A DNA stretch of 64,000 nt from Saprospiraceae bacterium (lineage in GTDB: Bacteria; Bacteroidota; Bacteroidia; Chitinophagales; Saprospiraceae), in assembly GCA_020850225.1 (NCBI GenBank), contig JADZFD010000078.1, positions 6,846 through 70,845 of the forward strand. Direction: 5' to 3'. Made by a program: the position numbers and the translations under genes. The notes beneath the pieces are model-generated. The model saw only the letters and a program-made list of their open reading frames with translations, was not told the DNA's origin and ran no database searches. Of this stretch, positions 10,504 to 49,887 are shown piece by piece (the first letter of the stretch is position 1; every line of letters begins with the position of its first letter).

Positions 10504-10530
10504 ATATTTTAAATAATTTAAATAAGATAA

Positions 10531-30302: not shown

Positions 30303-30310
30303 CAAAGATA
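30303..30310 (-). promoter_or_regulatory. -7 box TATCTTTG (minus strand)
   Basis: Plus strand reads CAAAGATA, upstream of the OstA-like gene. Confidence 0.4.
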
Positions 30311-31119: not shown

Positions 31120-31217
31120 TTTTCAGATAGTCAATCTATATTATATCAATAAAAATTTTCTGTGAGACATTCCATCTCATACATTCTGTTTAAAAAAGTT
31201 TAAAATATCAACAATAC

Positions 31218-33974: not shown

Positions 33975-34009
33975 GACTAAAATATCTTAGCGTTATTTCT
34001 AAAGAGCCG

Positions 34010-34017
34010 CAAAGATA
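34010..34017 (-). promoter_or_regulatory. -7 box TATCTTTG (minus strand) for rplY
   Basis: Plus strand reads CAAAGATA, with 35 nt to the ATG at 33974. Confidence 0.45.
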
Positions 34018-34220
34018 GGCATTTATTATTATTTATATTCATTTTTATTAAAAAAATATTTTTGAACATCAATTTATAAAATATATAGTAATTGATCATC
34101 TCATTCAAAATGTCAAAAATATGCAAACATTTTGGGTACTTCATCTGAATCCCAACAATAATTCTTTCGAAATAAATTCCATAGCTTAAAAAATATGTAA
34201 TTTTGATTTCATATTTCACT

Positions 34221-34228
34221 TATCTTTG
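34221..34228 (+). promoter_or_regulatory. -7 box TATCTTTG
   Basis: 25 nt to the ATG at 34254. This supports the shorter start for the protease gene. Confidence 0.45.
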
Positions 34229-34253
34229 TTTTATAAATCCAATTACATCTCCT

Positions 34254-35513
34254 ATGTTTCTATTGGAAAAATTCAGACTTATCAGGTCAGGGCTATTACT
34301 TTTAGTTGCATTATTGATAATTGCACCACATATGTCTATCGGACAAATACAAGATTACGCACCTGTTGTTAAGAAAGGACATACAGATATACCTTTCGAA
34401 TACATCAATGGATTTATCATTGTAGATGTGCTCTTCCAGAAGATTGTTCCGATGAAATTCATCTTTGACACCGGTGCTGAATATTCCGTTTTATTCAAAC
34501 CTGAATATATTACTGCACTTCAGATTCCATGCAGCAAGAAAGTCCGGTTGGTAGGAACGGATCTGAATACAGAAATATGGGCAGATATATGTTCAGGTGT
34601 TTATCTTCAGGTATCATCAGTCCAATCCAAACTGCAACAAATCATAGTTCTGGATGAAGATTATACTGATGTTGACGAATTTATAGGAAAGCAAATTAGT
34701 GGTATCTTAGGAGCTGATTATTTTCATAATAATGTAGTTTCAATCGATTATAAAAAAATGTTAATCACAATAATTGAATCCACATCTTTCATACCCGAGA
34801 AATACCATAAATATGAATCCTTCGATCTGGATATCATAAATAACAAACCTTACCTGAACTGCAGGACATCATTCACACCTGACAGTACGAAAACAATGAA
34901 AATGCTAATAGATACCGGAGCTGGTATTTCTGCAATATTTCATTACAATGATACGCTTAACTTAAAAAAAGAAAAATGGATTCAAGGTGTTCTGGGAAAG
35001 GGCCTGAGCGGTGATATTGCAGGTTATGTCGGAAGGGTACATTCTTTTCAGTTCGGATCTTTCGAATTTGGTCAGATGATTTCCAGTTTTCAATGGTTCG
35101 ATGAGGAAATACTAAAAAATTATAAGATTGTCAAAAGCGGACTAATCGGAAACGTATTACTCGAACGGTTTCATCTTGTTATAGATTACCCATCCAAAAA
35201 ACTATACATCAAACCGATAAAAAAATACAATCAACCTTTCGAATATGACAAAAGTGGCCTGACAATCTATGCTTATGGTGACAATCTCAATCAATATTAT
35301 ATTAAACACATACTCACGGATTCTCCGGCATATAAGGCCGGTTTACTGGAAAATGATATTATCCTGAAGATAAATGGCTGGTCATATAAATTGTTTTCAC
35401 TCAAAAAAATCAATAAAAAACTCAGTGCCAAAGCAGGCAGGAAGGTTACTTTAAAAATAAAACGTGGTGATCAGACACTTAAAAAGCAAATCATCCTGAA
35501 AGACTTGTTTTAA
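34254..35513 (+). CDS. two-lobed retropepsin-like aspartic protease with C-terminal PDZ domain
   Basis: It has a signal/TM N-terminus (MFLLEKFRLIRSGLLLLVALLIIA), two DTGA motifs (FIFDTGAEYSVLF and LIDTGAGISAIF), and a PDZ-like C-terminus (SPAYKAGLLENDIILKINGW). Confidence 0.7.
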   Translation: MFLLEKFRLIRSGLLLLVALLIIAPHMSIGQIQDYAPVVKKGHTDIPFEYINGFIIVDVLFQKIVPMKFIFDTGAEYSVLFKPEYITALQIPCSKKVRLVGTDLNTEIWADICSGVYLQVSSVQSKLQQIIVLDEDYTDVDEFIGKQISGILGADYFHNNVVSIDYKKMLITIIESTSFIPEKYHKYESFDLDIINNKPYLNCRTSFTPDSTKTMKMLIDTGAGISAIFHYNDTLNLKKEKWIQGVLGKGLSGDIAGYVGRVHSFQFGSFEFGQMISSFQWFDEEILKNYKIVKSGLIGNVLLERFHLVIDYPSKKLYIKPIKKYNQPFEYDKSGLTIYAYGDNLNQYYIKHILTDSPAYKAGLLENDIILKINGWSYKLFSLKKINKKLSAKAGRKVTLKIKRGDQTLKKQIILKDLF

Positions 35514-35543
35514 GACATCTCATGTATACAAATTCGGATATTC

Positions 35544-36455
35544 TTACGGCAATACCTGTATGCTCAGTTCTTTTTTTAGTGACGCTATTTCTTTTTCCAT
35601 CATACTGTAATTCGTAGTTGACATTGGAAATAATGGAAGTCTGACTTCTTTGGAGCAAAGACCCAGGATTTCCATTGCTGCCTTGATTCCTACCGGATTG
35701 CCTTCTGTATATAGCCATTTGTGCAGGTCATACGTTTTCATATTGAGTTGATTGGCTGCAAAAACATCCCTGTCAAGTCCAAAATTGATCATCTGGCTGA
35801 ATGCTTTAGGCAAAGCATTGGCAATCACCGAAATAACACCATCACATCCTGTAAGCACCATAGGTAAGGCCACATAATCATCACCGGAAGTGACAATAAA
35901 ATGTTCCGGCTTATGCTTGATTATATTGATGGACTGTATCAGGTCACCCGATGCTTCCTTAATACCAACGAAAACCCTGCTGTATTCAGCTAATCGCACT
36001 GTGGTTTCCCATGTCATATTGGAATGTGTCCTACCCGGCACATTATATAATATGATGGGCACAGGACTTACATCAGCCATAGCTTTATAATGTTGAAAAA
36101 TACCTTCCTGTGTGGGTTTTACATACGCTGGGCTAGCAGATAAGACTGCAGCTATTCCATCAAAATTGTAGGTTTTGAGCTTATGAACCAGCGCGTGGGT
36201 ATTATTGCCCCCAAAGTTGCCCGCTACCAGAGGTACCCGGTTGTTGATATGGCGAATACAGAAATCCAGCACTTCCCTTTCTTCATCAACGCTTAATGTT
36301 GCCGCTTCACCCGTAGAACCCAATGCTACAATAAAATTGACACCGCCATGAATTACATAATCAATTATATTGCCAAATGACTGGTAATCAATCTCATTAT
36401 TCCTGAATGGTGTGATTATTGCCACACCTGTTCCTATAAATCTCTGGTCTTTCAT
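35544..36455 (-). CDS. dapA: 4-hydroxy-tetrahydrodipicolinate synthase
   Basis: 303 aa with GSTGEAATLS, the YNVPGRT motif, and the active-site Lys context VGIKEASG. Confidence 0.9.
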   Translation of the reverse strand: MKDQRFIGTGVAIITPFRNNEIDYQSFGNIIDYVIHGGVNFIVALGSTGEAATLSVDEEREVLDFCIRHINNRVPLVAGNFGGNNTHALVHKLKTYNFDGIAAVLSASPAYVKPTQEGIFQHYKAMADVSPVPIILYNVPGRTHSNMTWETTVRLAEYSRVFVGIKEASGDLIQSINIIKHKPEHFIVTSGDDYVALPMVLTGCDGVISVIANALPKAFSQMINFGLDRDVFAANQLNMKTYDLHKWLYTEGNPVGIKAAMEILGLCSKEVRLPLFPMSTTNYSMMEKEIASLKKELSIQVLP

Positions 36456-36471
36456 TATTATTGTATTATTC

Positions 36472-36999
36472 TTATTTTAAAGCTACTAAATTCAATGCTT
36501 TCAGAATATTGTTCTGCAATAATTCTGTATTATGATCTCCGGGCAAATCTACAATCAATTCCAAATAATTTTCAGCTCTTTTGATTGATGGACCTACTTT
36601 AAATTTTGCAGTACTGTGCGCAATTATGTATTCGTATTGAGGCAACATCTTACGCGTCAGAATAATCAGCAAATCAAAGTTGTTTTTTATAAATTCACTT
36701 ACTTTATCACCTGAAGGAATACCATACCAATTGATATCCGTTCGGTTGAATGCAGCATAGTCCACATTGTCAAGAGGCAGCCTGTTGTCGACAAAAGCCA
36801 AAGACTTTACTTCCACCCTACCCGACTGACTGATATATTTTTTAAACTGATGTACCAGTTTTCGCTCTGACTCACTTGTTCCATCAAAAAGCACACCAAC
36901 AGTCTTAAGTTGATTAACTGAATGTGTCTGTTGAACATTTCTCCTGGAATCGACTGTAAAAGACCGGTAAAAAAGCCATTTCTTAATACCTTTTATCAT
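36472..36999 (-). CDS. hypothetical protein
   Basis: 175-aa ORF tightly packed between accA and dapA on the same strand. I recognise no motif. Confidence 0.55.
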   Translation of the reverse strand: MIKGIKKWLFYRSFTVDSRRNVQQTHSVNQLKTVGVLFDGTSESERKLVHQFKKYISQSGRVEVKSLAFVDNRLPLDNVDYAAFNRTDINWYGIPSGDKVSEFIKNNFDLLIILTRKMLPQYEYIIAHSTAKFKVGPSIKRAENYLELIVDLPGDHNTELLQNNILKALNLVALK

Positions 37000-37011
37000 A
37001 CTGTTGAATGC

Positions 37012-37968
37012 TTATTCGACAATTTGATACTTACCCATATTGTCATATTTGTCAATTCGGATGCGAATTCGTTCTTCAGCATCCTGAGGCATCAGCTCTC
37101 CCAATTCAGCCTTGATATGTGCTTTCAGTGTCTTAGCCATTTTTTCAGGATCCACATGTGCACCTCCCAACGGCTCTTTGATGATATCATCAATCAATCC
37201 AAAACTCAGCATATGTTCCGGTGTCAGTTTCAATGCCTCAGCAGCTTCTTCCTTGTGATCCCAACTACGCCACAATATCGAAGAACAGGACTCAGGTGAA
37301 ATAACCGTATACCATGTATTTTCCAGCATAAACACCTTATCTCCCACACCTATCCCCAAGGCTCCTCCGGAAGCACCCTCACCGATTACATAGCATAAAA
37401 CAGGAACTTTCAGCTGCGCCATCTCAAATAAATTTCTGGCTATAGCTTCTGCCTGTCCACGCTCCTCTGCCTCAAGTCCAGGATAAGCACCCGGTGTATC
37501 AATAAGTGTTACTATGGGTATATTGAACCGCTCCGCCATCTTCATCAACCGGAGTGCTTTTCTATAGCCATCTGGATTTGCCATTCCAAAATTACGGTAC
37601 TGCCTACTTTTAGTATTCGTACCTTTCTGATGACCGATTATCATTACCGACAAATTGTCAATTTTTGCCAATCCACCCACGATAGCCTTGTCATCAGCAA
37701 AATACCTGTCTCCGTGAAGTTCTGTAAATTTTTTACAAATCTGTTCTATATAATACAAAGTATAGGGACGTTCCGGGTGTCTGGACAACTGTACCCGCTG
37801 CCATCCTGTTAAGTTGGAATAAATTTCTTTTTTAGTATGCTGAATCTTCTTTTCGAGTTCCTTGATGCTCTCTGCCACATCTACTGTTCCCTCTGCTTCA
37901 ACATCTCGTAATTTTTCCATTTGCTCATACAAGCTCTCTAAGGGTTTTTCGAAGTCTAAATAAATCAT
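37012..37968 (-). CDS. accA: acetyl-CoA carboxylase carboxyltransferase subunit alpha
   Basis: 318 aa with [21 protein letters not shown] and [13 protein letters not shown]. Confidence 0.9.
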
Positions 37969-38254
37969 TGAACAAAAAATTTATATTAGTTTAAGGTTAT
38001 ATTTAGGTTATATTTTTTTATATCTCAATTATGTATACATAATATTAAACTATTATATTAAAATCAGATACCGACATTGCCTTTCTTTTCTATTGATTGA
38101 TTATCTTCTTATAAGGCATTCAGCAAGATACACATCGGTTTGACTGATATTTAATACAACTTACAAAATTAACGAATCCTATCCGTAAACAACCATAAAT
38201 AAAAAAAATAAATATTTTTTTTTGGAATTTCTTTTGTAAACATAAAAGAACATA

Positions 38255-38262
38255 TATCTTTG
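38255..38262 (+). promoter_or_regulatory. -7 box TATCTTTG with a TTTG at 38233-38236 (-33-like) for tRNA-Asp
   Basis: 18-nt spacer between TTTG and TATCTTTG, and 26 nt to the tRNA 5' end. Confidence 0.55.
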
Positions 38263-38288
38263 CGTCGCTTTTAGAGAAAGGCATTCAA

Positions 38289-38362
38289 GGTCTGGTAGTT
38301 CAGTTGGTTAGAATACATGCCTGTCACGCATGGGGTCGCGGGTTCGAGTCCCGTCCAGACCG
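38289..38362 (+). tRNA. tRNA-Asp (anticodon GUC)
   Basis: GGTCTGGTAGTTCAGTTGGTTAGAATACATGCCTGTCACGCATGGGGTCGCGGGTTCGAGTCCCGTCCAGACCG. It forms a cloverleaf with anticodon loop CT-GTC-AC and has no encoded CCA. Confidence 0.95.
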
Positions 38363-38369
38363 CTTAAAT

Positions 38370-38410
38370 AAACCCTTATTTCCGTTGGAAGTAAGGGTTT
38401 ATTTATTTTA
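38370..38410 (+). terminator. rho-independent terminator after tRNA-Asp
   Basis: 14-bp stem AAACCCTTATTTCC / GGAAGTAAGGGTTT (one G-U pair), loop GTTG, followed by ATTTATTTT. Confidence 0.75.
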
Positions 38411-38595
38411 GGATGACAAGATGTAAAATCAATAATCTTTATATGCTAAGTAGTAAATCTAATATCACTCTAACTACTTTTAAGCTATATTAATATACCG
38501 ATTATTTATGAATTGTATTTTCAAGAGTAACAGTTTAATTATATTAGACATATACAATGCTTAATCACAGCAAGATGATAAGCACAACTTATTAT

Positions 38596-38645
38596 AAAAA
38601 AAAGCATGCAGAGACTTTTGGGTAAGCTAACTGCATGCAAAAAAA
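38596..38645 (-). terminator. hairpin flanked by A/T runs, likely terminator of the minus-strand repeat-protein cluster
   Basis: GCATGCAG ... CTGCATGC 8-bp stem with a 19-nt loop. There is an A8 run on one side and an A7 run on the other, so it is T-tailed on both strands. Confidence 0.5.
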
Positions 38646-38750
38646 GTATTACGGATCGCCTTTTTTTTGGTTTAAATTCAAGGTATAATTTTTACCATAT
38701 TTCCAATTTGTTGCTTATAAGAATTGTTATTTCAAAATATCTGAAAGTTT

Positions 38751-40064
38751 TTAATTTCCGGTTTTCATTGTAAAACTTATATTATTCAGTTTTACAACCC
38801 AGGCATTCCATTCTCCTGTATGATGTTTATTGACATCGCCATCACTTGAAGAAGTGAATCCTGCCAGTACGAAACTATTGTTATCAGATGAAGTGACCGA
38901 ACAAGCTACATCCCAATCGGAACCACCTATTGTTTGTTCCCATTCAACAGATCCGGCGTAATTCAATTTTACTATCCAAATATCACTTCCGCCTTTATTT
39001 ATCCCAATATCTCCATTATCTGACTCTGTCCAACCTGTGACAATATACCCATCACTTCCCGAATTGATAACAGATGTTGCTGTATCATAACCCGATCCAC
39101 CCATTGATTTTTCCCACTCTAGATTGCCTGAAACATCCAGCTTGACTATCCATACATCTTCCTTGTCGTGGTGATTGGATACATGTCCATCAACTGACTC
39201 CGTAAACCCAACTACTAAGATACCATTATCAGCCGACTGAACGAGTGCATATCCTACGTCATTGTTACCTCCACCCAGTGATTTTTCCCACTCTAATATT
39301 CCTTTATTGTCAATTTTTAAAACCCACAGATCACCGGAACCATGATTTTTGCTTACATCACCATTACATGATTCTGTATAGCCACATAGTGCAAATCCAC
39401 CATCCAGAGTTTGTGTTATTGAGTACAATTCATCATAATCCGAACCTCCGTAAGTATATTGCCATTCCATGTCTCCGGACTGATTAAGTTTAACAATCCA
39501 GCCATCTGCCTTGCCCTTGTTCATAGCAATGTCATAATCTGATGATTCAGTAAATCCTGCAAGTACAAAACCATTGTCAGAAGTTTGAACCACAGAATTA
39601 AGAATATCAAATTCTGAACCACCTAAAGTTACATCCCATTCTACCTCTCCATTGCCATTTAATTTCAATACTCGGGCATCACCATTATTGATCCGGCCGG
39701 AATAGTTAAAATCACATGATGCTGAAAGTGCAGTAACAACATAACCACCATCATTCGTACAAACCACAGCATAAGCTTCATCAAATCCGGAACTTCCATA
39801 GTTTTGTTGCCATTCAACATTACCTCTGCTGCTTAATTTGGTTAACCAGATGTCTCCATAAATACACGCCTCACTGATTGCCATATCGCTTTCTATCTGT
39901 CCTGCTACTATAAAACCACCATCAGGTGTAGAAACTACATCACGTGCACTTGCCATTTTATGTCCTCCCAATACGTGTTGCCATTCAATGAATGACTGTC
40001 CTTTGATAAATCCTGCTGATGTTATCAACAGTAAAATAACGAGTAAAAAAATTTGCTTTTTCAT
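38751..40064 (-). CDS. secreted 7x58-aa repeat (predicted 7-bladed beta-propeller) protein, no C-terminal sorting domain
   Basis: The start is taken at MKKQIFLLVILLLITSAGFIKGQ (signal peptide). Seven tandem repeats follow, of the form EWxxxxGGSxxDxxxSVxQTxDGGFxxxGxTxSxDGDVxxxHGxxDxWxVKLxxxGxx. The protein ends ...VVKLNNISFTMKTGN with no CTD. Confidence 0.8.
   Translation of the reverse strand: MKKQIFLLVILLLITSAGFIKGQSFIEWQHVLGGHKMASARDVVSTPDGGFIVAGQIESDMAISEACIYGDIWLTKLSSRGNVEWQQNYGSSGFDEAYAVVCTNDGGYVVTALSASCDFNYSGRINNGDARVLKLNGNGEVEWDVTLGGSEFDILNSVVQTSDNGFVLAGFTESSDYDIAMNKGKADGWIVKLNQSGDMEWQYTYGGSDYDELYSITQTLDGGFALCGYTESCNGDVSKNHGSGDLWVLKIDNKGILEWEKSLGGGNNDVGYALVQSADNGILVVGFTESVDGHVSNHHDKEDVWIVKLDVSGNLEWEKSMGGSGYDTATSVINSGSDGYIVTGWTESDNGDIGINKGGSDIWIVKLNYAGSVEWEQTIGGSDWDVACSVTSSDNNSFVLAGFTSSSDGDVNKHHTGEWNAWVVKLNNISFTMKTGN
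38754..39995 (-). repeat. seven tandem ~58-aa protein repeats (paralogue C)
   Basis: The period was counted by hand, e.g. EWQYTYGGSDYDELYSITQTLDGGFALCGYTESCNGDVSKNHGSGDLWVLKIDNKGIL is 58 aa. Confidence 0.8.
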
Positions 40065-40277
40065 AATTAACAGATTTAAATTGTTACGTAATTTTAATAG
40101 TTTTTGCAATGAACATCAGGTACATTTTAGATATAAAAAGACATTAAAAGTATACTAACTCATTAAGAAAATGTTATGTAACCATTAAATTAGGATAAAT
40201 AATTATCCTGATGTATATATTGTCAATGATACCCGATGTTCGATTTTATAATTAATTTTTGCATTATATGGTTGAAA

Positions 40278-42803
40278 TTATTCTTTATTGAGTACAATTT
40301 TCCTTGTGATTGAGAAATCCTGCTTACTGAGTCGTACAAAATAGACCCCTGAATTCAATCTTGAGATATCGATGGACTGAACATCCAAAGGAAGGCTTTG
40401 AATCACTTTACCATCAATAGTAACTATCTCAGCAGATGTTATATCAGGGTCGTGATTAAGCCTGATAACACCAGAAGAAGGATTAGGATAAACATCTGAT
40501 TCAAGTGTAAAATTAGCGTCAACAGATGTGTGACTAATAATTTTAACTATACCGGTTTTCACATTCAAATTAGCATTTTCCATGTTATTATCAACAAACA
40601 TAGATGTAAAAGGAAGTGTTGACATCTTAATTTCAGTCAGGTTATCACCTTTGCCAATGATTCTGAATTTTAACTTCATACACACTGCATTAACAGCTAT
40701 TGTGTTACCTTTGTCCAGATTATCTGCTTCCCAAATCACACCCAAAACTCCATTTGAAACCAGTGTTTCATTAAAGTAATATTTTCCTGGAAATTTTGTT
40801 CCTGTATAAGAAACAGGTGATATCAATTGCAATTTATCCGTAGACCATGTTATTGAAAATTGCATTCCAACTCCATTCGTAAAGTTATTACATATCACAG
40901 GTACTTCAATTACTGATCCAGGAAACCCCTGCGCATTTTGAATCTTCAATTCAACATTGGTTAGGTTTGGGTTGAAAAAATCAGAATCATTTAATAAAGA
41001 ACTATGGTCGAGATCTCCCTTTTTATATCCGATAAACACCTGATTATCCTGATCTTTCCTTACATTCTTCAACGTGATAGCATAAGGAATTTCAACAAAA
41101 ATATTGGAATCTTTAACAGTTGACTGAGGTACAAAGTGCCATACATTTTCAATATCTTGATTATTATTTCCCATACTGGTTAAAATCTGTCTCATAGCGA
41201 GTACATCATCTTTATCCACATTATTGTCATTGTCAATATCAGCGGCCAGGTAGGTATACAAATCTTCAATTGATTTATCTCCTTCAAGATATTTTCTCAA
41301 AACAAGTACATCCTTGACGTTCATACCATTCGTAATATTATCCTTTTTATCAGCCTTCACAGTATAGTTTTTGCCATTTTGGAAAGCAGGAGAAATATAT
41401 CTTCCTGAATCATCAATTTCAAATGCTGATATGAGTTTCTCATCAGAAAAAACATTTATTTGTACATCTCTAACAGGGGCATAATCTGAAGTCACTACAT
41501 TTCCCGACATTTGAAATTCCTTACTTAGCTTACATATGAATCCTGAAGCTACGCCCTTTTGACCTTCAAAATCTCCATTTTTCGAATCAGTCGAGCCAAC
41601 GACAATATAATCATCTATACCTGAGCGTATAATATTTGTAGCCATATCGCGTTCTGATCCTCCTAATAGCTTTTGCCATTCTACAATACCTGACCTGTTA
41701 ATTTTTACAATCCAAGCATCTTCTTTACCATGGTGACCTATACTTTTTACCAGGTTAATAGTAGAATATCCAGCTACCATAAATCCTTCATCCGATGTTT
41801 GGACAATAGAAAATATCATATCATCTTTAGAACCTCCAATGTAATTTCTCCACTCTATTTCGCCTGAAGCATTAAGCTTAACTACCGATCCATTCCACTT
41901 GCTGTTTTTTGGATCTGAATCATCATATAATGAATTAGAATAACAAGCAAGTGCATAACCTCCATCAGCAGTACGAATCATATCACTGACAAAATCCAAG
42001 CCTTTTCCTTCAAATACTTTTTCCCATTCAATTTCTCCTAAAGCATTCAGTTTCAGCACACAGGCTTTTTGATATTGATTAAATTTCTTATCAGTTTCCT
42101 GAGTTTTCTTAAGACCCCATCCTGCTATAACTATACTAAAGTCACTAGTTTCCAATACTGACTTAGCTTCACCCTGATCAAGTGATGTAATTGTCTTATT
42201 CCATATAATTTCACCTGTGATATCAACTTTAACAAGCCACATTTTCCTGCCTGATAAAGTGCCGATTGAAACATCACCATTTCTTGAATGCGTGTATCCT
42301 GCTATCAATAAACTTCCATCAGCACTTTCTATGATATCATTCGCACCTTCCTGCAGTGTGCCTCCAATGGACTTTTTCCATTCAATATCACCTTTGGCAT
42401 TTAGTTTCAGGAGCCATATATCCTGTATGCCTTTGAGATCTGAAACATCTCCGTCAGATGATTTGGTTTCGCCCACGACTGCATACCCGCCATCAGATGT
42501 TTGAATAACTGCTGTTGCTCTCTCATCTTCAGAGCCACCCAGTATTTTCTGCCATTCTACTTTCTTACTGCTGTTCATTTTAACTATCCACATATCATAT
42601 TTGCCATGATAATTTTTCAAATTACCTGAAGAAGTTGATCCTGCCATTATAAAACCACCATCCTTAGTCTGGTTTACAGATAGCAGACTTTGTAATTCGG
42701 TACCACCTAACGTTCGGTTCCATACCATATCATGCTGACCAAATACTGCATTTGTCATTGTCATAATAATCCAAATACATCCGATTAAAAAAATCTTTTT
42801 CAT
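40278..42803 (-). CDS. secreted 7x58-aa repeat protein with CarboxypepD_reg-like, dockerin-like and cohesin-like modules and a T9SS type A CTD
   Basis: 841 aa. The order is signal peptide, seven repeats (residues ~24-427), and a dockerin-like EF-hand pair (NGMNVKDVLVLRKYL; DIDNDNNVDKDDVLAMRQIL). Then come a cohesin-like module (VELKIQNAQGFPGSVIEVPVICNNFTNGVGMQFSITWSTDKLQL...) and the CTD (VYPNPSSGVIRLN...GVYFVRLSKQ). Confidence 0.8.
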   Translation of the reverse strand: MKKIFLIGCIWIIMTMTNAVFGQHDMVWNRTLGGTELQSLLSVNQTKDGGFIMAGSTSSGNLKNYHGKYDMWIVKMNSSKKVEWQKILGGSEDERATAVIQTSDGGYAVVGETKSSDGDVSDLKGIQDIWLLKLNAKGDIEWKKSIGGTLQEGANDIIESADGSLLIAGYTHSRNGDVSIGTLSGRKMWLVKVDITGEIIWNKTITSLDQGEAKSVLETSDFSIVIAGWGLKKTQETDKKFNQYQKACVLKLNALGEIEWEKVFEGKGLDFVSDMIRTADGGYALACYSNSLYDDSDPKNSKWNGSVVKLNASGEIEWRNYIGGSKDDMIFSIVQTSDEGFMVAGYSTINLVKSIGHHGKEDAWIVKINRSGIVEWQKLLGGSERDMATNIIRSGIDDYIVVGSTDSKNGDFEGQKGVASGFICKLSKEFQMSGNVVTSDYAPVRDVQINVFSDEKLISAFEIDDSGRYISPAFQNGKNYTVKADKKDNITNGMNVKDVLVLRKYLEGDKSIEDLYTYLAADIDNDNNVDKDDVLAMRQILTSMGNNNQDIENVWHFVPQSTVKDSNIFVEIPYAITLKNVRKDQDNQVFIGYKKGDLDHSSLLNDSDFFNPNLTNVELKIQNAQGFPGSVIEVPVICNNFTNGVGMQFSITWSTDKLQLISPVSYTGTKFPGKYYFNETLVSNGVLGVIWEADNLDKGNTIAVNAVCMKLKFRIIGKGDNLTEIKMSTLPFTSMFVDNNMENANLNVKTGIVKIISHTSVDANFTLESDVYPNPSSGVIRLNHDPDITSAEIVTIDGKVIQSLPLDVQSIDISRLNSGVYFVRLSKQDFSITRKIVLNKE
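40281..40502 (-). other. T9SS type A C-terminal sorting domain of the 841-aa protein
   Basis: VYPNPSSGVIRLNHDPDITSAEIVTIDGKVIQSLPLDVQSIDISRLNSGVYFVRLSKQDFSITRKIVLNKE. Confidence 0.8.
40539..40967 (-). other. cohesin-like module
   Basis: Residues ~613-755. The pattern is a beta-sandwich starting VELKIQNAQGFPGSVIEVPV...GMQFSITWSTDKL...LKFRIIGKGDNLTEIKMS...GIVKI. Confidence 0.55.
41169..41351 (-). other. dockerin-like duplicated EF-hand segment
   Basis: Residues ~485-545. The D-x-D-x-D-x-x-x-D-x-x-D loop (DIDNDNNVDKDD) plus helix VLAMRQIL is preceded by a degenerate first copy, NITNGMNVKDVLVLRKYL. Confidence 0.6.
41523..42734 (-). repeat. seven tandem ~58-aa protein repeats (paralogue B)
   Basis: The repeats start VWNRTLGG, EWQKILGG, EWKKSIGG, IWNKTITS, EWEKVFEG, EWRNYIGG and EWQKLLGG. 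Confidence 0.8.
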
Positions 42804-42845
42804 GTTGTAAATTTTTAGAAGATTAAATAATTTTTATAGTTAGTT

Positions 42846-43217
42846 TTAAAAAATAATTCCCGTTTTCAAAGCAAATAGCACTAATTCCTGAACATTCCTG
42901 ATATTGCACTTGGCGTAAATATTTGACCGATGTTTTTCAACAGTGTTAATTGATATAAATAATTTTTCTGCTATCTCTGTAGTAGTTAGTCCAACACTTG
43001 TATATTTTGCAACTTCAATCTCCCTGTTGGTCAACTCATTACATTCATTACTGTTTATCTGCCGACAAATTTTCTGATTGATAAGTGCACACTTTTTCAT
43101 CAGACCTGTAAGCTTTTCGCATGGATATTTATGATTAACTTCTGCTTTATATTCCTTAATCATAGCTTCAATTTCCATAATTATCTGGTTTACGTCTTCA
43201 TTCAAAATCTTTGTCAT
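42846..43217 (-). CDS. LuxR/GerE-family helix-turn-helix transcriptional regulator without a receiver domain
   Basis: 123 aa. The C-terminal LTNREIEVAKYTSVGLTTTEIAEKLFISINTVEKHRSNIYAKCNI is a LuxR-type HTH. The ~60-aa N-terminal part is helical and carries 4 Cys. Confidence 0.8.
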   Translation of the reverse strand: MTKILNEDVNQIIMEIEAMIKEYKAEVNHKYPCEKLTGLMKKCALINQKICRQINSNECNELTNREIEVAKYTSVGLTTTEIAEKLFISINTVEKHRSNIYAKCNIRNVQELVLFALKTGIIF

Positions 43218-43332
43218 AGTCCATTTTATTAGGCTATATGAAACAATATATTATAATTAATAATTCATATTATACATTTAATATTCTTTATTGAATTATA
43301 GTAACCCTATTTTAAGTACATATAAATTAATT

Positions 43333-46300
43333 TTATCGCAATATTGTTACATTCCCATAAAATGTTTTTAAATTGTCATTTTTTAGCTTAACAGAGGCGA
43401 CCCATACATATACTCCAGTCGAAACCTTTTCACCATCCAATGTACCATTCCATCCCATTTCAGGAACATTGGGTGGAAAATTTTCATTTTGGAAAACCTT
43501 ATTACCCCATCGGTCAAAAACTGACATAGTATTAATTACTACATCCTGATTTGTGTAAGCCGTAAAATACCTGTTTCTTCCATTTCTTCCCAAAACATTA
43601 GGAAACTCGATATCCACACTTTCTTCTATTTGCAGTACCAAATGATAAATTGAATCGCATCCATGTGAAGTTGATAAAGCCTCAGTATACATACCGGCAT
43701 AGGCATATTCGACATTGGTTACCGGCCATCTGTATTTGTTTTCAGAAGTTATTGTATCAAAATATTCATATTCGGGATAAATCTGAAGGGACAATTCAAC
43801 TATTGAATCACAGCCGTATATATTAGAAAATATTTGACTATAACTTCCGCTTTCTTCATATAATTGATCTCCCCAGGCAAAGCTTCCACAGGAAGTTTGA
43901 TACACCGTCTCTACATTATTAGGATGGACAACCAAATCCAAAATCAGGAAGCTATCACATCCTAATACAGTTTCAGATTTGTAATAATACCGCCCACTTG
44001 TATCATGCATTATACCTTGCCAGTAATAAGGACTGCATGATTCTACATGTAAAAATAATTGTTCTTCCTTACCGACTCGAATTTCCAGCATACCTACAGA
44101 ATAGCATTGTGCTGATTTACGAACTCCATTTTTATAAGTAATGCGTACAAACAATGTTATGGATCCTGTAAAATATGTTCGTGGAGCTTGTATAAAATTA
44201 TCATTTCCCAAAATAGCTTCTGCAAACGACTTATAATAGGTAAAATTATAATAATCAGGTTTGTCAACAAAAAGCGATTCGCTTTCCGACAAATCAAATT
44301 CAGCCATCCCAATTCCTTCATCATCACATACTGTTGGCAATACAACCATTGAAGTCATGAGCTCAGGAGATGGTGTCACTTCAAGATACACCTTAATTAT
44401 ACGTATAAGTACACCTCTTTCATCCTCTACTCTTATAAATAAATTATTTGTATTGCCATCCTTGATATCTATCATTACAGGTAAATCAATATCCATTGAA
44501 TCCCTTTTTGCATCATCCAAACTCTTGAAAAAAGAATATTTCTCAATAGGGCATATATTGTAAAATGCTGGTTTTAAGTCTTGGTATTCAAAAAAAACTT
44601 TACCTGTTCCATTAATATCGCATTTACTTAGAGTGATACCATCTACTACACATTTGACATCTGCATTACCACCAAATGTCAGCGTATATCCTAATTTTGT
44701 TTGAGGTTTGCGGCTGACTGCAATTAAAATCTCATCATAACCCTGTACATCATAATGCTTTAAAAATCCGGATGATTTATGGGGTTTTGTTGTAGCATCT
44801 TCACAATATTCAACTGCTACAGGCGACAAACCTGTCATATACTGATGTGTAATCTCAGGATCATATAAAGAACTTCGAATATTCTGTTGTCCGGTTGATA
44901 AAAGATTACTCCAATCAGGATTGAGCCATGAAATAAAATCATAATCTTCATCGCCATCAGGTACAACAGTAAAAGTAAAAGTCGATCCTTTATTTATTCG
45001 TACCAGGTAAAAATCAGTATAAGGCGACAACAACTCATCATCGTTACAAAGGCTGCTTAAATAATTTATTGAAGTAACATTTGGAAGGTCTTTTTTAATT
45101 GACTCATTATCACATACTCTTGTTATCAAGTGTTCGGGTATGATAACCGGATTATTGACAATCGGTATATTGAGCTTAACAATCCATGCATCGAAACCGC
45201 CAAAATACTCTTTAATATCCCCGTCACTTGACTGTATCCATCCCGCCATTAAAAAACCTCCATCTTTAGTTTGTACGACTGTATTGGCAACATCATTTTC
45301 ACTTCCTCCTAAAGCCATCTGCCATTCTATACTACCTCTGCAATTAAGTTTGACAATCCACGCATCAAGCTCACCATGTTTATCTTTAATATTTGCGTCA
45401 TCCGATCCTGCCCATCCAGCAATGACATAGCCACCATCGTATGTTTGAACTACAGAATTTGCTGAATCACTGTCTGACCCACCCATTGTCCTTTGCCATT
45501 CAATATCACCAGTCTGATTGAGTTTGATTACCCACCCATCTTCAGAACCATGCTGACCCTTTACATCACCGTCATGGGACTCAGTTTTTCCCACCAGCAG
45601 ATACCCATAATCCTGCGTTTGGATAATATCATAAGCCCAATCACCCCAGGAACCACCCAACAATTTTTGCCATTCAATATCACCATTATTAGATAGTTTA
45701 CAAATCCACGCATCACTACCACCATGATTCCATGATTGGTTCTTATTCGATGATTCTGACCATCCGGCTATGGCATAGCCACCATCCAGCGTATTGACAA
45801 CAGACTGAGCTCTGTCATATCCTGAACCTCCAATGGTTTTCTGCCATACTAAAGTACCTGCATTATCCAGTCTAAAAACCCAGGAATCAAATCCACCATT
45901 ATTCCCGGTCATGGCTCCATCCGTTGATGATGTCCAGCCAACACCAATACACCCACCATCCGGAGTTGGTTTGATACTATATATATGATCAAAGCCAGAT
46001 GCCCCCAATACTGTTTTCCATATGATATTTCCTGATACATCGATTTTCAATACCCAACCATCGTCCTGTCCATGGTTTCCGGATACATCCCCGTCATGGG
46101 AATTGGTAGTACATGCTATTATAAACCCTTTATCTGATGTTTCAACAACATTATATCCCATCTCATTTCCACTACCTCCAAACGCTTTTTGCCATAAAAC
46201 ATCACCTTTACCACTGAGCTTGACTACCCAAACGTCATAACCACCATGATAAGTATCTATTCCAATGATCCTGGAATATGTATAACCTACCATAACATTG

Positions 46301-46449
46301 CTCCCATCTGAAACTTCAATCGCAGCGAGAGCACTTTCACCTCCTGAGCCACCTAATGTTTTTTGCCATGATATACCGGGTTGTCCCCAAGAACTAACAG
46401 TTGTAAGTACAACTAGAATCCATGTAATAAGTGTATTCGTATTTCTCAT
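43333..46449 (-). CDS. secreted 7x58-aa repeat protein with adhesin-like modules, three Cys modules and a T9SS type B (gliding-associated) CTD
   Basis: 1038 aa. The order is signal peptide, seven repeats (residues ~25-427), and a jelly-roll-like segment (YLVRINKGSTFTFTVVPDGDEDYDFISW). Then come three ~45-aa C..Y.W......SG.Y......GCDS...L.L modules. The C-terminus is FPNVLGRNG...VFDRWGNKVF...GWNGTLDGEKVSTGVYVWV...GNVTILR. Confidence 0.8.
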   Translation of the reverse strand: MRNTNTLITWILVVLTTVSSWGQPGISWQKTLGGSGGESALAAIEVSDGSNVMVGYTYSRIIGIDTYHGGYDVWVVKLSGKGDVLWQKAFGGSGNEMGYNVVETSDKGFIIACTTNSHDGDVSGNHGQDDGWVLKIDVSGNIIWKTVLGASGFDHIYSIKPTPDGGCIGVGWTSSTDGAMTGNNGGFDSWVFRLDNAGTLVWQKTIGGSGYDRAQSVVNTLDGGYAIAGWSESSNKNQSWNHGGSDAWICKLSNNGDIEWQKLLGGSWGDWAYDIIQTQDYGYLLVGKTESHDGDVKGQHGSEDGWVIKLNQTGDIEWQRTMGGSDSDSANSVVQTYDGGYVIAGWAGSDDANIKDKHGELDAWIVKLNCRGSIEWQMALGGSENDVANTVVQTKDGGFLMAGWIQSSDGDIKEYFGGFDAWIVKLNIPIVNNPVIIPEHLITRVCDNESIKKDLPNVTSINYLSSLCNDDELLSPYTDFYLVRINKGSTFTFTVVPDGDEDYDFISWLNPDWSNLLSTGQQNIRSSLYDPEITHQYMTGLSPVAVEYCEDATTKPHKSSGFLKHYDVQGYDEILIAVSRKPQTKLGYTLTFGGNADVKCVVDGITLSKCDINGTGKVFFEYQDLKPAFYNICPIEKYSFFKSLDDAKRDSMDIDLPVMIDIKDGNTNNLFIRVEDERGVLIRIIKVYLEVTPSPELMTSMVVLPTVCDDEGIGMAEFDLSESESLFVDKPDYYNFTYYKSFAEAILGNDNFIQAPRTYFTGSITLFVRITYKNGVRKSAQCYSVGMLEIRVGKEEQLFLHVESCSPYYWQGIMHDTSGRYYYKSETVLGCDSFLILDLVVHPNNVETVYQTSCGSFAWGDQLYEESGSYSQIFSNIYGCDSIVELSLQIYPEYEYFDTITSENKYRWPVTNVEYAYAGMYTEALSTSHGCDSIYHLVLQIEESVDIEFPNVLGRNGRNRYFTAYTNQDVVINTMSVFDRWGNKVFQNENFPPNVPEMGWNGTLDGEKVSTGVYVWVASVKLKNDNLKTFYGNVTILR
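43336..43620 (-). other. T9SS type B sorting domain (gliding motility-associated C-terminal domain)
   Basis: Residues ~944-1038. The hallmark motifs DRWGNxVF, W.G...G..v..GvY.w and G.vtllR are present. Confidence 0.75.
43621..44049 (-). repeat. three tandem ~45-50-aa Cys-containing modules ending in GCDS...L.L
   Basis: SCSPYYWQGIMHDTSGRYYYKSETVLGCDSFLILDLVVHP; SCGSFAWGDQLYEESGSYSQIFSNIYGCDSIVELSLQIYP; NKYRWPVTNVEYAYAGMYTEALSTSHGCDSIYHLVLQIEE. Confidence 0.7.
45169..46377 (-). repeat. seven tandem ~58-aa protein repeats (paralogue A)
   Basis: The repeats start SWQKTLGG, LWQKAFGG, IWKTVLGA, VWQKTIGG, EWQKLLGG, EWQRTMGG and EWQMALGG. Confidence 0.8.
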
Positions 46450-46541
46450 AGTTTAAGTAGTTTTTATCAGAAATACAGTGCTAAGTTTGATTATCTGAAA
46501 TACATATTAGCGTCATTATCAGATTATATACTAAAATAAGT

Positions 46542-46549
46542 CAAAGATA
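46542..46549 (-). promoter_or_regulatory. -7 box TATCTTTG (minus strand) upstream of the 1038-aa gene
   Basis: Plus strand reads CAAAGATA, with 92 nt to the ATG at 46449. The leader contains three TTATCWGA repeats. Confidence 0.4.
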
Positions 46550-47043
46550 CAAAGCCACATATGACACCTTGTAGTATACACTATCTTTAAGCTTATGCGT
46601 ATCTTTTAGTGCCAATATTTTATATCCGTAGCAAATCTAAAAAATATGCTTACTTCTTTATTAGCCGTATCCTTATTGCGAATATTTTTTGCTGATAATG
46701 CAATCAAACTTTTTCACCTGTTGCTGATTTGTTAATTGAATCATAATTTTTTTAAAAGTTAATTAGTTAATCTACGTAGAATTTTTTATAAATTACAGAA
46801 CAAAGATAATAAGCATAATTTATACAATTATTACGGTATTCCGTAATTTTATGATTCTGATATTAATTTTTTTAAAACTATCGATAATGAACCATCATTC
46901 AACTTTCTATTCAGACTGTTTTGGGGGTCTTGTTAAAAAATGTAAACATATATTTTTAACTATACTTATTATATTGTACTTTTGTTAAACACTTTTTTAC
47001 CTTTGAAGGCAATAAATAACCTGAGATTACAAAATAACTATGT

Positions 47044-47409
47044 ATGAGAAAATTATTATTAATCATTTTAGTTGTCATTAATACACAATTAGAGGCTCAA
47101 GACCCCAGTTATCAGAATTTTGCACAAAACAGATTTCTTTTCAATCCATCCCTTACAGGTAGTTATGGAGCACAGAGCTGGATGGTACGTTCTAAGATGC
47201 AATGGAATAATGATGGAGGTAATGGATACAAAACGTTGAGTCTTTTGTTTGAGGAGACCATGCCGTGCAGTATTCTGGATATAGGTGCTAAAGTTAATTA
47301 CAATGAAGAAGGCGCCGGATTATACCGCACACTTGAGTTGGGATTTTTATCATCTGCATTACACAACAACACCATTTTTCACATTCCAATCACAAAACAA
47401 TTCGGATGA
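47044..47409 (+). pseudogene. truncated PorP/SprF family gene (121 codons, versus 341 in the full-length paralogue at 12142..13167)
   Basis: A signal peptide is followed by QDPSYQNFAQNRFLFNPSLTG...MQWNNDGGNGYKTLSLLFEE, which aligns with the N-terminal third of PorP/SprF. Only 78 nt separate its stop from the convergent ATPase stop, so the rest is absent rather than frameshifted. Confidence 0.65.
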
Positions 47410-47487
47410 CAGATTGTCGGAATTTCACTGATTACAACCCTTAACTCTATATTGTTTAGCAGTTTTTGGACAATTTTCTTATATCCT

Positions 47488-49887
47488 TTATCTATCACCA
47501 GCACCTCTGAATAACCAGGTACTGGACAGCAATCCATATATCATAACCGTAATCGAGCTGACAGGCATGAGGATAGCTGCGACTATGGGTGATAGTTCTC
47601 CTCGTACTGCAAAATACAAACCGATGACATTATATAGAAACGCTAGTATAAATGCGCCTTTTATAAGGTTTCTTGCCTGATGAAGTTTAATCAGATAGTA
47701 CAATAGTCGATCAAATACACCTGCACCCAGTATGGCATCACAGGCTGGAGTGAAATTATTAGAGTCTTCTGAAATGACGATTCCTACATCACTCTGCATT
47801 AAAGCACCGGCATCGTTCAGCCCATCACCTATCATAATCACATGATGTCCCTCTGACTGTACATTTTTGACATAGGTCAATTTATCCATAGGTGACTGTT
47901 CAAAAATCATCTTACTATCTGCTGGAAAAATAGCCCTCAACCTTGATTCTTCACGGTTATTGTCTCCCGACAAAATCGTAATTTTATATCTGCTACTCAG
48001 CGTATCAACCAATTCTTCGACGCCGGTGCGTAGCTGGTGTTCGATATCGAACCTGGTTATATATTGCCCGTCGATGGTTATGAATACTCCTTTCAGATCA
48101 CCATGGGCTTCACATTCGGTATAAAATGCGGAGCCTACTTTGATGACATGTTCCTCTATTACCGTTGATGTACCCTTTCCGGGAACCTCTTCAAAACTTT
48201 CTACAACGGTACTAAAGTCGCCTTCAAGTATCTTGAAAATCGCCTTACTCAAGGGATGACCGGATTGAAATACGGCCGTTTTAATCAGATACCGCTCTTT
48301 TTCTGACAAAGATTTATCCGTATTTATTGCTTTGATGTTTCTATGGTCAGTTAAAGTACCCGTTTTATCAAATATGATCTCATCAATATGCTGGATACGG
48401 TCTATAACCTGCACATTCTTAAGGTAAAATTGATTTCTTCCCAGTATCCGCATGATATTTCCATAGCTGAACGGCATTGCAAGTGCAAGTGCACACGGAC
48501 AGGCAACAATCAGAACGGCGGTAAATGCATTGAATGCCAGGGCTTTATCGGCAATCAGCCAATATACCAGCGTCAGTACGGCTATACTCATCACTGTAAT
48601 TGTAAAATATTTGCCTATTTTATCAATCAGTGTCTGTGTCCGGGCTTCCTTATCGATTCTGAATGTATCTTCATCCCAGAGTTTGGTCAGGTAGGACTGA
48701 TCTACCTTTTTTAGCGTTTGTACCTGTATATTGGCACCTGAATTTTTACCTCCGGCAAACAGTTTATCTCCTTTCTGCTTGCGTATCGGTTCAGACTCCC
48801 CGGTTACAAAGCTGTAGTCTATCCGGGCATTATCCACCATAAGTACGGAATCAACAGGAATGATTTCTTCATTTTTTATCATCACCAGGTCACCTGTATC
48901 GATGTTGTCCAAGGTTCTGGATTCCCACTCATTCCCCACTTTTACCAATGCTGAGATTGGAAAATAGGATTTATAATTCCTGTCAAACGTGATAGAGTAA
49001 AAGGTATAATGCTGAAACCATTTGCCTACCAACAAAAAGAAAACAAAACCAGCCAGACTATCAAGGTAGCCTTCACCCGTTGCTGAAACAATTTCATAGA
49101 CACTTCTGAAATAAAGCGTCAACATACCTACAGCGATAGGAATATCTATGTTGATCTGCTTCATTTTCAATGTCCAGTATGCAGATCTGATGTACCCAAA
49201 TCCACTGTACAGCAATACCGGTGTCGCCAACATTATATTCAGATATCCCAGATAAAACCTGACGGAAGCTTTTTCAAAGCCCAGGTATTCGGGAAAACTC
49301 AGCAACATAATATTGCCAAAAGCAAAACCTGCGAGTCCCAATTTGTAAAACAGACTTCTGTCCTGGCCTATGGTATTCGTTCCTGATAATTTCTGAAGGT
49401 TCAATTCGGGAGGATATCCTATTGAAGCCAGCGTCTCTACCACCTTTCTCAAAGAGACAATCTGAGGATTAAAACTGATTGTAGCTGTCTTGGCCAAAAA
49501 ATTAACCCTTGAGTGAATAATACCCGTTTGTAGTTTATTGATATTTTCAAGCAACCACAGACAAGATGCACAATGGATCTGTGGCAATGAAAACGATATT
49601 TTGTACAGATGCTCCTCTCTGAATTCCAGCAAACTCGCAATAACGCTATCATCATCCAAAAATGCATAATTATTATCACGTATTGTTTTTTGACTCACTC
49701 CGGGAGTATCCTGAAATGTATAGTAGTCTCCCAGTCCATTCTCCTGCAATACTGTATAAATCACCTGACAGCCATTGCAGCAAAAGTCCTTTCCATCCAT
49801 AATAGGATGGTCATCCGGACATTCGTCACCACAATGACTACATACTGTTTTTACAACTTTATCAGGTGCGATTGTCTTAATCATCAC
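47488..49887 (-). CDS. ccoI: heavy-metal (Cu) translocating P-type ATPase, CcoI/FixI type
   Basis: 799 aa. It has an N-terminal Cys-rich domain (CSHCGDECPDD...FCCNGCQVIY), the CPC motif (VACPCALALAMP), DKTGTLT and GDGLNDAGAL. Confidence 0.85.
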   Translation of the reverse strand: MMIKTIAPDKVVKTVCSHCGDECPDDHPIMDGKDFCCNGCQVIYTVLQENGLGDYYTFQDTPGVSQKTIRDNNYAFLDDDSVIASLLEFREEHLYKISFSLPQIHCASCLWLLENINKLQTGIIHSRVNFLAKTATISFNPQIVSLRKVVETLASIGYPPELNLQKLSGTNTIGQDRSLFYKLGLAGFAFGNIMLLSFPEYLGFEKASVRFYLGYLNIMLATPVLLYSGFGYIRSAYWTLKMKQINIDIPIAVGMLTLYFRSVYEIVSATGEGYLDSLAGFVFFLLVGKWFQHYTFYSITFDRNYKSYFPISALVKVGNEWESRTLDNIDTGDLVMIKNEEIIPVDSVLMVDNARIDYSFVTGESEPIRKQKGDKLFAGGKNSGANIQVQTLKKVDQSYLTKLWDEDTFRIDKEARTQTLIDKIGKYFTITVMSIAVLTLVYWLIADKALAFNAFTAVLIVACPCALALAMPFSYGNIMRILGRNQFYLKNVQVIDRIQHIDEIIFDKTGTLTDHRNIKAINTDKSLSEKERYLIKTAVFQSGHPLSKAIFKILEGDFSTVVESFEEVPGKGTSTVIEEHVIKVGSAFYTECEAHGDLKGVFITIDGQYITRFDIEHQLRTGVEELVDTLSSRYKITILSGDNNREESRLRAIFPADSKMIFEQSPMDKLTYVKNVQSEGHHVIMIGDGLNDAGALMQSDVGIVISEDSNNFTPACDAILGAGVFDRLLYYLIKLHQARNLIKGAFILAFLYNVIGLYFAVRGELSPIVAAILMPVSSITVMIYGLLSSTWLFRGAGDR

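Follow-up and report, generated by a model that had tools for sequence, protein, structure and literature searches.

The locus described here lies in a 64,000-nt stretch of a Saprospiraceae bacterium genome (contig JADZFD010000078.1; hereafter the window), between a tRNA-Asp gene and a gene for a ccoI-type P-type ATPase. It comprises three genes, A, B and C, that share a repeat module and of which two end in a type IX secretion system (T9SS) C-terminal domain (CTD), together with a small helix-turn-helix (HTH) gene and a truncated PorP/SprF gene. As such it is a known kind of thing, a strain-variable cluster of T9SS cargo genes. The core T9SS genes are located outside the window, and a search of the whole window against Rfam returned two tRNAs and nothing else. 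A precomputed domain label, PF26689 ("FIDD"), was traced neither in the Pfam copy used nor in published work. A first-pass annotation made from the sequence alone had given open reading frames (ORFs), coordinates and strands for A, B, C, the HTH gene and the PorP/SprF stub, and all of these are as claimed. The features are:

38289..38363, plus strand: tRNA-Asp (GTC), predicted by ARAGORN and matched in Rfam at 68.6 bits; its 3' end faces the locus, of which it is the conserved left boundary.
38365..38405, plus strand: hairpin directly after the tRNA, with 19-nt arms that are 95% complementary; probably the tRNA-Asp terminator.
38751..40064, minus strand: gene C, 437 aa; signal peptide and seven-bladed propeller alone, without a T9SS CTD.
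40278..42803, minus strand: gene B, 841 aa; signal peptide, propeller, beta-sandwich and dockerin-like segment, cohesin, T9SS type A CTD.
42846..43217, minus strand: HTH gene, 123 aa; stand-alone GerE/LuxR-type protein with its HTH at 42870-43037.
43333..46449, minus strand: gene A, 1038 aa; signal peptide, propeller, 370-aa module, Cys repeats, type B CTD.
46450..47043: divergent intergenic region of 594 nt between A and PorP/SprF; probable promoter region for both.
47044..47409, plus strand: PorP/SprF stub, 121 codons; matches positions 3-81 of the 273 in the Pfam PorP_SprF profile.
47352..47357: deletion junction, 6-nt microhomology ATCTGC.
47488..49887, minus strand: ccoI-type P-type ATPase gene; conserved right boundary, outside the locus.

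The truncation of the PorP/SprF gene can be traced by comparison with other strains. Same-species contigs were found through exact look-ups of C, A and ccoI (contigs and loci compared with the window are labelled L001, L002, L007 and so on), and haplotypes were compared between window 28751-50064 and L001-L006 and L092-L110. Residues 1-105 of the stub are identical to an intact 378-aa allele, and residues 106-121 come from reading on into ccoI-proximal DNA; in L001, the intact allele extends over profile positions 3-273, where the stub stops at 81. L001 (metagenome-assembled genome (MAG) GCA_963169905.1) and L002 (JGI 3300009870) are 99.97-99.995% identical to window 28751-47357 and diverge after it. 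Past 47357, they hold the intact PorP/SprF gene, followed by a gene for a PKD-rich protein that overlaps it by 26 nt and is cut by the contig end. The other side of the intact haplotype is seen in L099, a contig of the same MAG as L001 with ccoI near its end, which matches the window without a difference between ccoI and 47352 and beyond that carries the last 125 codons of a converging gene with a CHU_C terminus (E = 2.3e-8). The hexamer ATCTGC at 47352-47357 is common to both intact junctions and to the window junction, and the window haplotype is therefore a microhomology-mediated deletion derivative. The deletion took out codons 106-378 of PorP/SprF, the PKD/type B CTD gene in full and a further 38 nt on the 3' side of that gene, at least 2.77 kb in all given that the middle of the PKD gene is not assembled; a metagenome scan with the PKD fragment returned one distant match. 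The first-pass annotation had described a 121-codon truncated PorP/SprF at the border of a horizontally acquired or decaying island. The truncation and the decay are borne out by the deletion, but the stub is the first gene of a deleted PorP/SprF and PKD pair and not an island border.

The deletion junction is spanned by 12 distinct contigs from independent samples and the intact form is present in two assemblies, with the intact PorP/SprF on a single contig in the collection. We consider it very improbable that the two haplotypes are an assembly artefact, such as chimeric contigs at a repeat. An artefact would fit the position of the intact form at contig ends (L001, L002 and L099) and the behavior of L110, which breaks exactly at 47357. 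However, a break at that point is the assembly fork expected where both alleles coexist in a sample, the deletion junction recurs across the 12 contigs, and the intact left junction occurs in two independent assemblies, where it completes a full-length ORF matching the whole profile, while a bona fide CHU_C terminus follows at the right end. The deletion allele is found on backgrounds up to 0.66% diverged from the window (L003 and L108, the sample of the latter being labelled activated-sludge metagenome), and the intact allele (L001) on a background with 1 mismatch to the window in 18.6 kb. The polymorphism is thus uncoupled from flanking single-nucleotide polymorphisms (SNPs), which implies recombination between strains or recurrent deletion. 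Elsewhere in the compared contigs, accA, DUF6913 and DHDPS are split into many short ORFs in L093 (JGI 3300056789) at 8425-10576, a pattern more like that of an error-prone assembly rich in frameshifts than of real pseudogenes.

The sequence beside tRNA-Asp varies between species as well. A scan with AccA across 185,579 species genomes put the organism in Saprospiraceae and identified L007, at 91% AccA identity, as the closest species. It keeps both flanks, namely aldehyde dehydrogenase (ALDH)-ccoI and tRNA-Asp-accA, with ccoI at 78% amino acid identity and synteny retained, and nucleotide homology to the window ends 6 nt beyond the tRNA (38369) and again at the stop of ccoI (47505). The 2.8 kb between these points in L007 contain a DUF4349 gene together with a direct repeat, 401 bp long, of the ccoI 3' end, and none of the genes of the locus. 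The repeat itself (L007:6894-7294 and L007:7853-8253) consists of the ccoI 3' end plus about 70 nt, is 99.5% identical between copies with a period of 959 bp, and yields a 96-codon duplicate of the ccoI C-terminus; it could be an integration or excision footprint, a tandem duplication or an assembly artefact. Five relatives have five different contents beside tRNA-Asp, including a 2,012-aa surface protein in L013 and sugar-metabolism genes with a type A cargo gene in L015. In L014, from a Saprospiraceae MAG (tRNA-Asp at L014:6562-6636), an integrase-like gene with Arm-DNA-bind_5 and Phage_int_SAM_5 domains and an RteC gene lie immediately 3' of the tRNA (L014:4129-6285), a gene content that suggests an integrative or conjugative element; a search of the 6.5 kb available gave no att repeat. 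Given these differing contents, the tRNA-Asp flank is a variable position, and an integration site in at least one genus. The comparison of the tRNA-Asp to ccoI interval that had been proposed at first annotation therefore upholds the description of an accessory locus, the gene set being absent from the closest species and other cargo occupying the site in the relatives examined.

Whether the locus arrived on a mobile element is a separate question. In common with tRNA-associated islands, it abuts the 3' end of a tRNA gene, the nearest species lacks it, and the same site in a relative holds an integrase-like gene and RteC; unlike them, it has no integrase, att repeat or mobility gene and its compositional signal is mild. 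No integrase was found among the ORFs of the window and no mobility gene at the locus, and no repeat of the tRNA tail of 11 nt or more, as a candidate att, was found within 38376-48000, the sole 11-mer match to the tail being an arm of the hairpin after the tRNA. GC content is 0.347 at the locus and 0.379 in the rest of the window, within the window's range, and GC at third codon positions (GC3) of A, B and C is 0.27, about 1.3 standard deviations below the window value of 0.342 +/- 0.054. The tetranucleotide distance, at 0.173, is the largest of the 9.1-kb segments of the window (0.123 +/- 0.021, maximum 0.167 elsewhere), and is inflated by the 21 copies of one repeat in the locus. The idea that the locus is the remnant of an element integrated at the tRNA-Asp 3' end, which later lost its integrase and att and is now eroded further by the deletion, would account for a start 6 nt past the tRNA, for the absence from the closest species, for the integrase-like gene and RteC at the equivalent position of L014 and for the deviating tetranucleotide distance and GC3. 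We nevertheless regard it as unlikely, since no integrase, mobility gene or direct repeat of the tRNA 3' end remains, the repeat copies raise the k-mer deviation while GC stays within range, and all of the cargo is typical of the host phylum. The first-pass annotation had likewise reported neither integrase nor att repeat and had called the composition only suggestive; its four hand counts of G+C are exact, the windowed GC and k-mer analysis finds the locus mildly atypical, and of its horizontally acquired or decaying island, decay is established by the deletion and horizontal origin is possible but unproven. Elsewhere in the window, a gene at 6958-8466 (minus strand), whose 502-aa product has a C-terminus resembling a type A CTD (LYPNPADNRVTIR...), has a GC of 0.46 and a GC3 of 0.48, compared with a window mean GC3 of 0.34, and accounts for a GC spike at 7-8 kb. 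Directly upstream of it, at 8468-8872 (minus strand), is a gene for a 134-aa protein that is barely more than a signal peptide and a CTD-like tail. These two genes are possibly a more convincing candidate for horizontal transfer than the locus.

The module shared by A, B and C is a repeat domain placed at the very start of the exported protein. In each case, a Sec-type signal peptide ending in a G/Q cleavage site is followed within a few residues by seven repeats of about 58 aa, the propeller starting 4-6 residues past the cleavage site. All 21 blades, seven from each protein, align far beyond chance, in agreement with the repeats first annotated, and share the consensus EW.K.LGGS..D.A.S..QT.DGGY..AG.T.S.DGD..G.HG..D.W.VKL...G. 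At the DNA level the same repeat appears as a period of 174 nt, with 15 copies that are 60-71% identical and lie multiples of 174 nt apart. C was modelled with AlphaFold2 from a 36-sequence alignment, and the model has seven sets of four strands plus a closing strand (29 strands) with a predicted local distance difference test score (pLDDT) of 89.7 and a predicted template-modelling score of 0.88. The best Foldseek match to this model, and the only close solved structure, is the propeller of CylK (template-modelling score 0.82, root-mean-square deviation 2.6 Å), and a phmmer comparison of C with CylK gives E = 1.6e-20 with the alignment confined to the CylK propeller, residues about 225-644. 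The repeat region is thus confidently predicted to be a seven-bladed beta-propeller of the CylK-like (SBBP-type) kind.

Profile libraries capture this family poorly. Among NCBIfam models, A and C match NF047494 (LipL53) and TIGR02608 (delta-60) across the whole propeller at E of about 1e-14, at a score for NF047494 of 52 bits against a cut-off of 400 bits and with TIGR02608 likewise below cut-off. Pfam SBBP (PF06739) matches neither A, B and C nor a single one of 36 family members, and none of the Pfam repeat models tested on those 36 recognises the family. The profile searches and structure prediction suggested at first annotation yield a seven-bladed propeller of an uncharacterised family. 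The Leptospira SBBP lipoproteins (NF047494, LipL53) and the delta-60 proteins (TIGR02608) belong to the same repeat superfamily as A, B and C and, like them, are exported cell-envelope proteins; A, B and C differ from LipL53 in having no lipobox and in scoring far below the family cut-offs. The propeller family has at least 5,821 clusters at E<=1e-3. A type A CTD (Por_Secre_tail) is present in 92 of the 120 best family matches, typically in proteins of 510-520 aa in total, and CHU_C in none of the 120; a minority of the family is propeller-only, like C, at about 430-440 aa. The usual form is a propeller with a type A CTD, and the family is a very large one of Bacteroidota T9SS cargo. Four homologues with 39-43% identity (P0038, P0042, P0053 and P0076) come from MAGs labelled Helicobacteraceae, Clostridiales Family XIII and Armatimonadetes, and two of them carry a T9SS C-terminal target annotation; these off-phylum homologues are explained either by contaminated bins or by a family that is distributed more widely.

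The three propellers are 34-42% identical to one another, and the best foreign homologue of C is 44% identical to it. Mean blade identity is about 35% for blades of the same index in different proteins, for different blades of one protein and for blades of different index in different proteins. This lack of positional orthology suggests strong consensus constraint or homogenisation within the repeat family. Recent tandem duplication of the propeller genes is ruled out by these identities and by the lack of any excess between same-index blades. Judged by the same two observations, A, B and C are old paralogues or independent arrivals, and not a recent local expansion.

Beyond the propeller the three proteins diverge. 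Gene A has the following parts:

45169-46380, minus strand: propeller.
44059-45168, minus strand: 370-aa module typical of type B CTD adhesin-like proteins, residues 428-797.
43618-44058, minus strand: three Cys repeats of about 45 aa, ending in the motif GCDS.
43336-43617, minus strand: type B CTD.

The CTD scores 35.6 bits with Pfam CHU_C (cut-off 27) and 23.5 bits with NCBIfam TIGR04131 (cut-off 35), so that the type B CTD assigned at first annotation passes the threshold of the former model but not that of the latter. Residues 428-945 have no match in Pfam or in PDB sequence searches, and the predicted structure of the A tail has a mean pLDDT of 55, exceeding 70 for the three Cys repeats and the CTD alone. 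An exhaustive HMMER search of 1.84 billion representative proteins recovered 286 clusters homologous to the middle module. In the best-matching relatives, the whole 360-aa A module directly follows the signal peptide, relatives of 2,000-3,000 aa carry as many as 15 tandem copies of its second half, and all five of the relatives tested have a CHU_C terminus. Because the middle module normally follows the signal peptide directly in type B CTD relatives, A appears to be a propeller fused ahead of an otherwise ordinary, complete type B adhesin-like cargo protein. The fusion of propeller and A module occurs in no other protein among the 150 best relatives listed.

Gene B encodes a signal peptide, MKKIFLIGCIWIIMTMTNAVFG, followed by Q, whose hydrophobic core and G/Q site fit the Bacteroidota Q-rule by inspection. 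The remainder of the protein is arranged as follows:

41523-42737, minus strand: propeller.
41169-41522, minus strand: small beta-sandwich, weakly CarboxypepD_reg-like, and dockerin-like segment.
40611-40955, minus strand: cohesin, Pfam Cohesin 31.3 bits (cut-off 24.1).
40290-40493, minus strand: T9SS type A CTD, residues 771-838.

The CTD is recognised by both Por_Secre_tail PF18962 (45.6 bits, cut-off 27) and TIGR04183 (48 bits, cut-off 23). Dockerin_1 reaches 14.5 bits, below its cut-off of 22.9, over two F-hand-like Asp/Asn-rich segments. The cohesin and type A CTD named at first annotation are therefore above their cut-offs, whereas the dockerin is sub-threshold. Sequence matches of B in the PDB are weak, with marginal hits to type II cohesins (E about 0.008) and to the T9SS CTD chain 8glk_D. 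Like the non-cellulosomal cohesin/dockerin proteins of Bacteroidota, B has a Pfam-significant cohesin and two F-hand-like segments; it differs from them in the sub-threshold dockerin and in having both modules in one polypeptide, between a propeller and a type A CTD, and no partner protein was identified. By analogy with characterised type A cargo, B would be exported by the T9SS via the PorV route, lose its CTD and become covalently attached to the surface, where it would display the propeller, the dockerin-like segment and the cohesin.

Gene C stops 10 residues past the last strand of the propeller. The 387 nt downstream (38364-38750) are full of stops in three frames and hold no CTD remnant, from which it follows that C is truly tag-less and not recently truncated; its ending after blade 7 without a sorting signal had been annotated correctly. 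C would be exported by Sec alone and would be periplasmic by default, unless carried out of the cell in another way.

The deletion raises the question of which cargo protein the lost shuttle served. Type B cargo needs a cognate PorP/SprF, and the shuttle gene is usually directly downstream of the cargo gene (PMC12618676; PMC9143113), although there are documented cases of "orphan" type B cargo that depends on a shuttle encoded at a distance (PMC12618676). Downstream, A is followed by the GerE-type HTH gene and not by a PorP/SprF gene, the truncated PorP/SprF being upstream of A and divergent from it. The CTD of A is 31% identical to that of the PKD protein over 64 aa, the closest homologues of the A tail elsewhere have no adjacent PorP/SprF and no conserved neighbourhood, and A is an intact ORF of 1038 codons in all deletion-bearing strains examined, up to 0.66% diverged. 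Based on the overlap and co-direction of the PorP/SprF gene with the PKD gene, on the low CTD identity to A and on the intact state of A after the deletion, we conclude with moderate confidence that PorP/SprF and the PKD protein are a pair that was lost together and that A is an orphan cargo. A would then be exported via a PorP/SprF-type shuttle encoded elsewhere in the genome and be held non-covalently on the surface, by analogy with known type B cargo. The alternative, that the truncated PorP/SprF was the cognate shuttle of A, so that A is no longer released or anchored and is becoming a pseudogene, draws on the usual adjacency of type B cargo and its specific shuttle, on there being no other PorP/SprF near A, and on the divergent promoter region common to both genes. 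We find it doubtful: the canonical order is cargo then shuttle, whereas here the shuttle precedes and overlaps the PKD/CHU_C gene by 26 nt, and the CTD divergence, the A-tail homologues without a neighbouring PorP/SprF and the persistence of an intact A in deletion-bearing strains all speak against a stranded cargo protein. In Flavobacterium johnsoniae, a CHU_C/type B protein is likewise encoded beside a PorP/SprF gene (SprB-SprF and Fjoh_3952-Fjoh_3951), and the ancestral haplotype similarly links the PorP/SprF gene to a large PKD-rich type B CTD protein. Relative to F. johnsoniae the order is reversed, the shuttle coming upstream of the cargo. A and the shuttle gene point away from each other, and the window shuttle is cut to 105 native residues (comparison based on PMC12618676).

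Between A and B lies the HTH gene. Its 123-aa product has a GerE HTH at residues 61-116 (E = 5.6e-17) and no receiver or autoinducer-binding domain, and its N-terminal 60 aa match nothing in Pfam or NCBIfam. The first-pass annotation was right about its length and the missing receiver. The label "LuxR solo", in its quorum-sensing sense, was rejected as no autoinducer-binding domain was found, and the protein is better described as a stand-alone GerE-family HTH protein. Its full-length relatives are same-species alleles only; the next matches are NarL/FixJ regulators, which align over the HTH part alone, and a search for orthologues found no full-length relatives outside the species. Conserved linkage can therefore not be used to argue that the HTH protein regulates its neighbours, although it may do so. 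A second allele, P0121, is 97% identical at the amino acid level and carries 5-6 SNPs grouped within 372 nt, and the strains that have it differ from the window by only about 0.1% in the flanking genes; the cluster could be a small recombination tract or local diversification.

Signals for transcription are sparse. The Bacteroidota -7 motif TAnnTTTG, which has a background of 0.68 per kb per strand in the window, is present three times upstream of A, lies 46, 67 and 562 nt ahead of PorP and was not found before the HTH gene, B or C; this distribution weakly supports a promoter region at 46450..47043. A sigma-70 scan gave 49 promoter-like sites compared with 45 expected, the sigma-70 model being uninformative for a Bacteroidota genome, and a terminator scan found no terminator-like sites on the coding (minus) strand. 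Co-transcription of the locus genes is plausible from this arrangement.

These observations bear on the proposal, made at first annotation, that one module deployed in three forms under a local regulator constitutes a dedicated surface recognition or adhesion system rather than random paralogy. Such a system would combine free, type A and type B forms of the propeller, co-regulation by the LuxR-type protein and the adjacent PorP/SprF. The genes point the same way and lie close together without coding-strand terminator-like sites between them, among A, HTH, B and C the candidate promoter motifs lie upstream of A only, all three proteins have the same propeller, and the cohesin and dockerin-like segment of B could mediate assembly. 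We judge the proposal improbable even so. The propellers, at 34-42% identity, are no closer to one another than C is to foreign homologues (44%). The gene set, including the HTH protein, is confined to one species, propeller homologues in other genomes lie in unrelated contexts with no conserved neighbourhood, and a propeller gene is present in one of 80 related loci around accA. Moreover, PorP/SprF is lost in most sampled strains while every other gene is intact, and it overlaps and is co-directional with the PKD gene, not A.

We favor, as the fairly probable explanation, that the tRNA-Asp to ccoI interval of this activated-sludge Saprospiraceae species is a lineage-specific variable region of independent T9SS cargo genes that is decaying, and not a conserved multi-gene system. 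Several points weigh against this. A, the HTH gene, B and C are co-directional with gaps of 115, 42 and 213 nt and without terminators or -7 motifs between them, and co-transcription with some functional coupling of the four is possible. The PorP/SprF gene divergently adjoins A and could have served it, which would leave A stranded in the deletion strain. A horizontal origin is possible in view of the top-ranking tetranucleotide distance and the low GC3. The intact haplotype is seen at contig ends only, and the middle of the deleted gene was not recovered. Finally, a literature search found no binding or localisation data for any member of the propeller family, nor any functional work on it.

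What the propeller does can be approached through its nearest structural relative. CylK, a cyanobacterial Friedel-Crafts alkylating enzyme (PDB 7FH6/7RON), also has seven blades formed by repeats of about 58 aa, and in CylK, Ca2+ sites bridge adjacent blades (PMC8916777). The conserved acidic DGD...D.W motifs in the blades of A, B and C may, by analogy, bind blade-bridging Ca2+ in the same manner. The CylK active site is situated where the propeller meets a Ca2+-binding beta-roll domain at the N-terminus, which supplies Arg105 (PMC8916777), whereas in A, B and C the propeller directly follows the signal peptide without any such domain. A CylK-like enzyme was therefore rejected, and the resemblance is one of fold and not of enzymatic function; such a role is also unlikely given that the proteins are exported T9SS cargo. 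Saprospiraceae from wastewater are reported to have a floc-embedded, sometimes epiphytic lifestyle (PMC9304909), and the propellers would most likely serve in sludge flocs as heads that bind ligands or mediate adhesion. A broader proposal, in which the propeller is the ligand-binding head of a large T9SS surface family or, more speculatively, the cohesin and dockerin-like segment of B form a self-assembling or partner-recruiting, cellulosome-like scaffold, is in our estimation a long shot.

The current understanding of the T9SS is unchanged by this locus, and what is novel in it is modest: a propeller joined to a type B adhesin-like protein, and a naturally polymorphic deletion of shuttle and cargo resolved to the base pair. 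In Bacteroidota, T9SS cargo accounts for a large part of the proteins on the surface and of those secreted, and most of this cargo is uncharacterised. The locus illustrates a very common propeller head without a usable Pfam model or known ligand, and how such heads are recombined with different sorting tags, and cargo and shuttle pairs are gained and lost between near-identical wastewater strains. The deletion provides a marker for surface-protein turnover in an abundant, uncultured sludge lineage. If the propeller is indeed a binding head, the locus would represent a natural experiment, in which the same head occurs untagged, with a type A tag and with a type B tag, and with PorP/SprF present or absent in co-occurring strains, and which would lend itself to testing how the final location of otherwise similar cargo depends on its CTD class and on shuttle availability.

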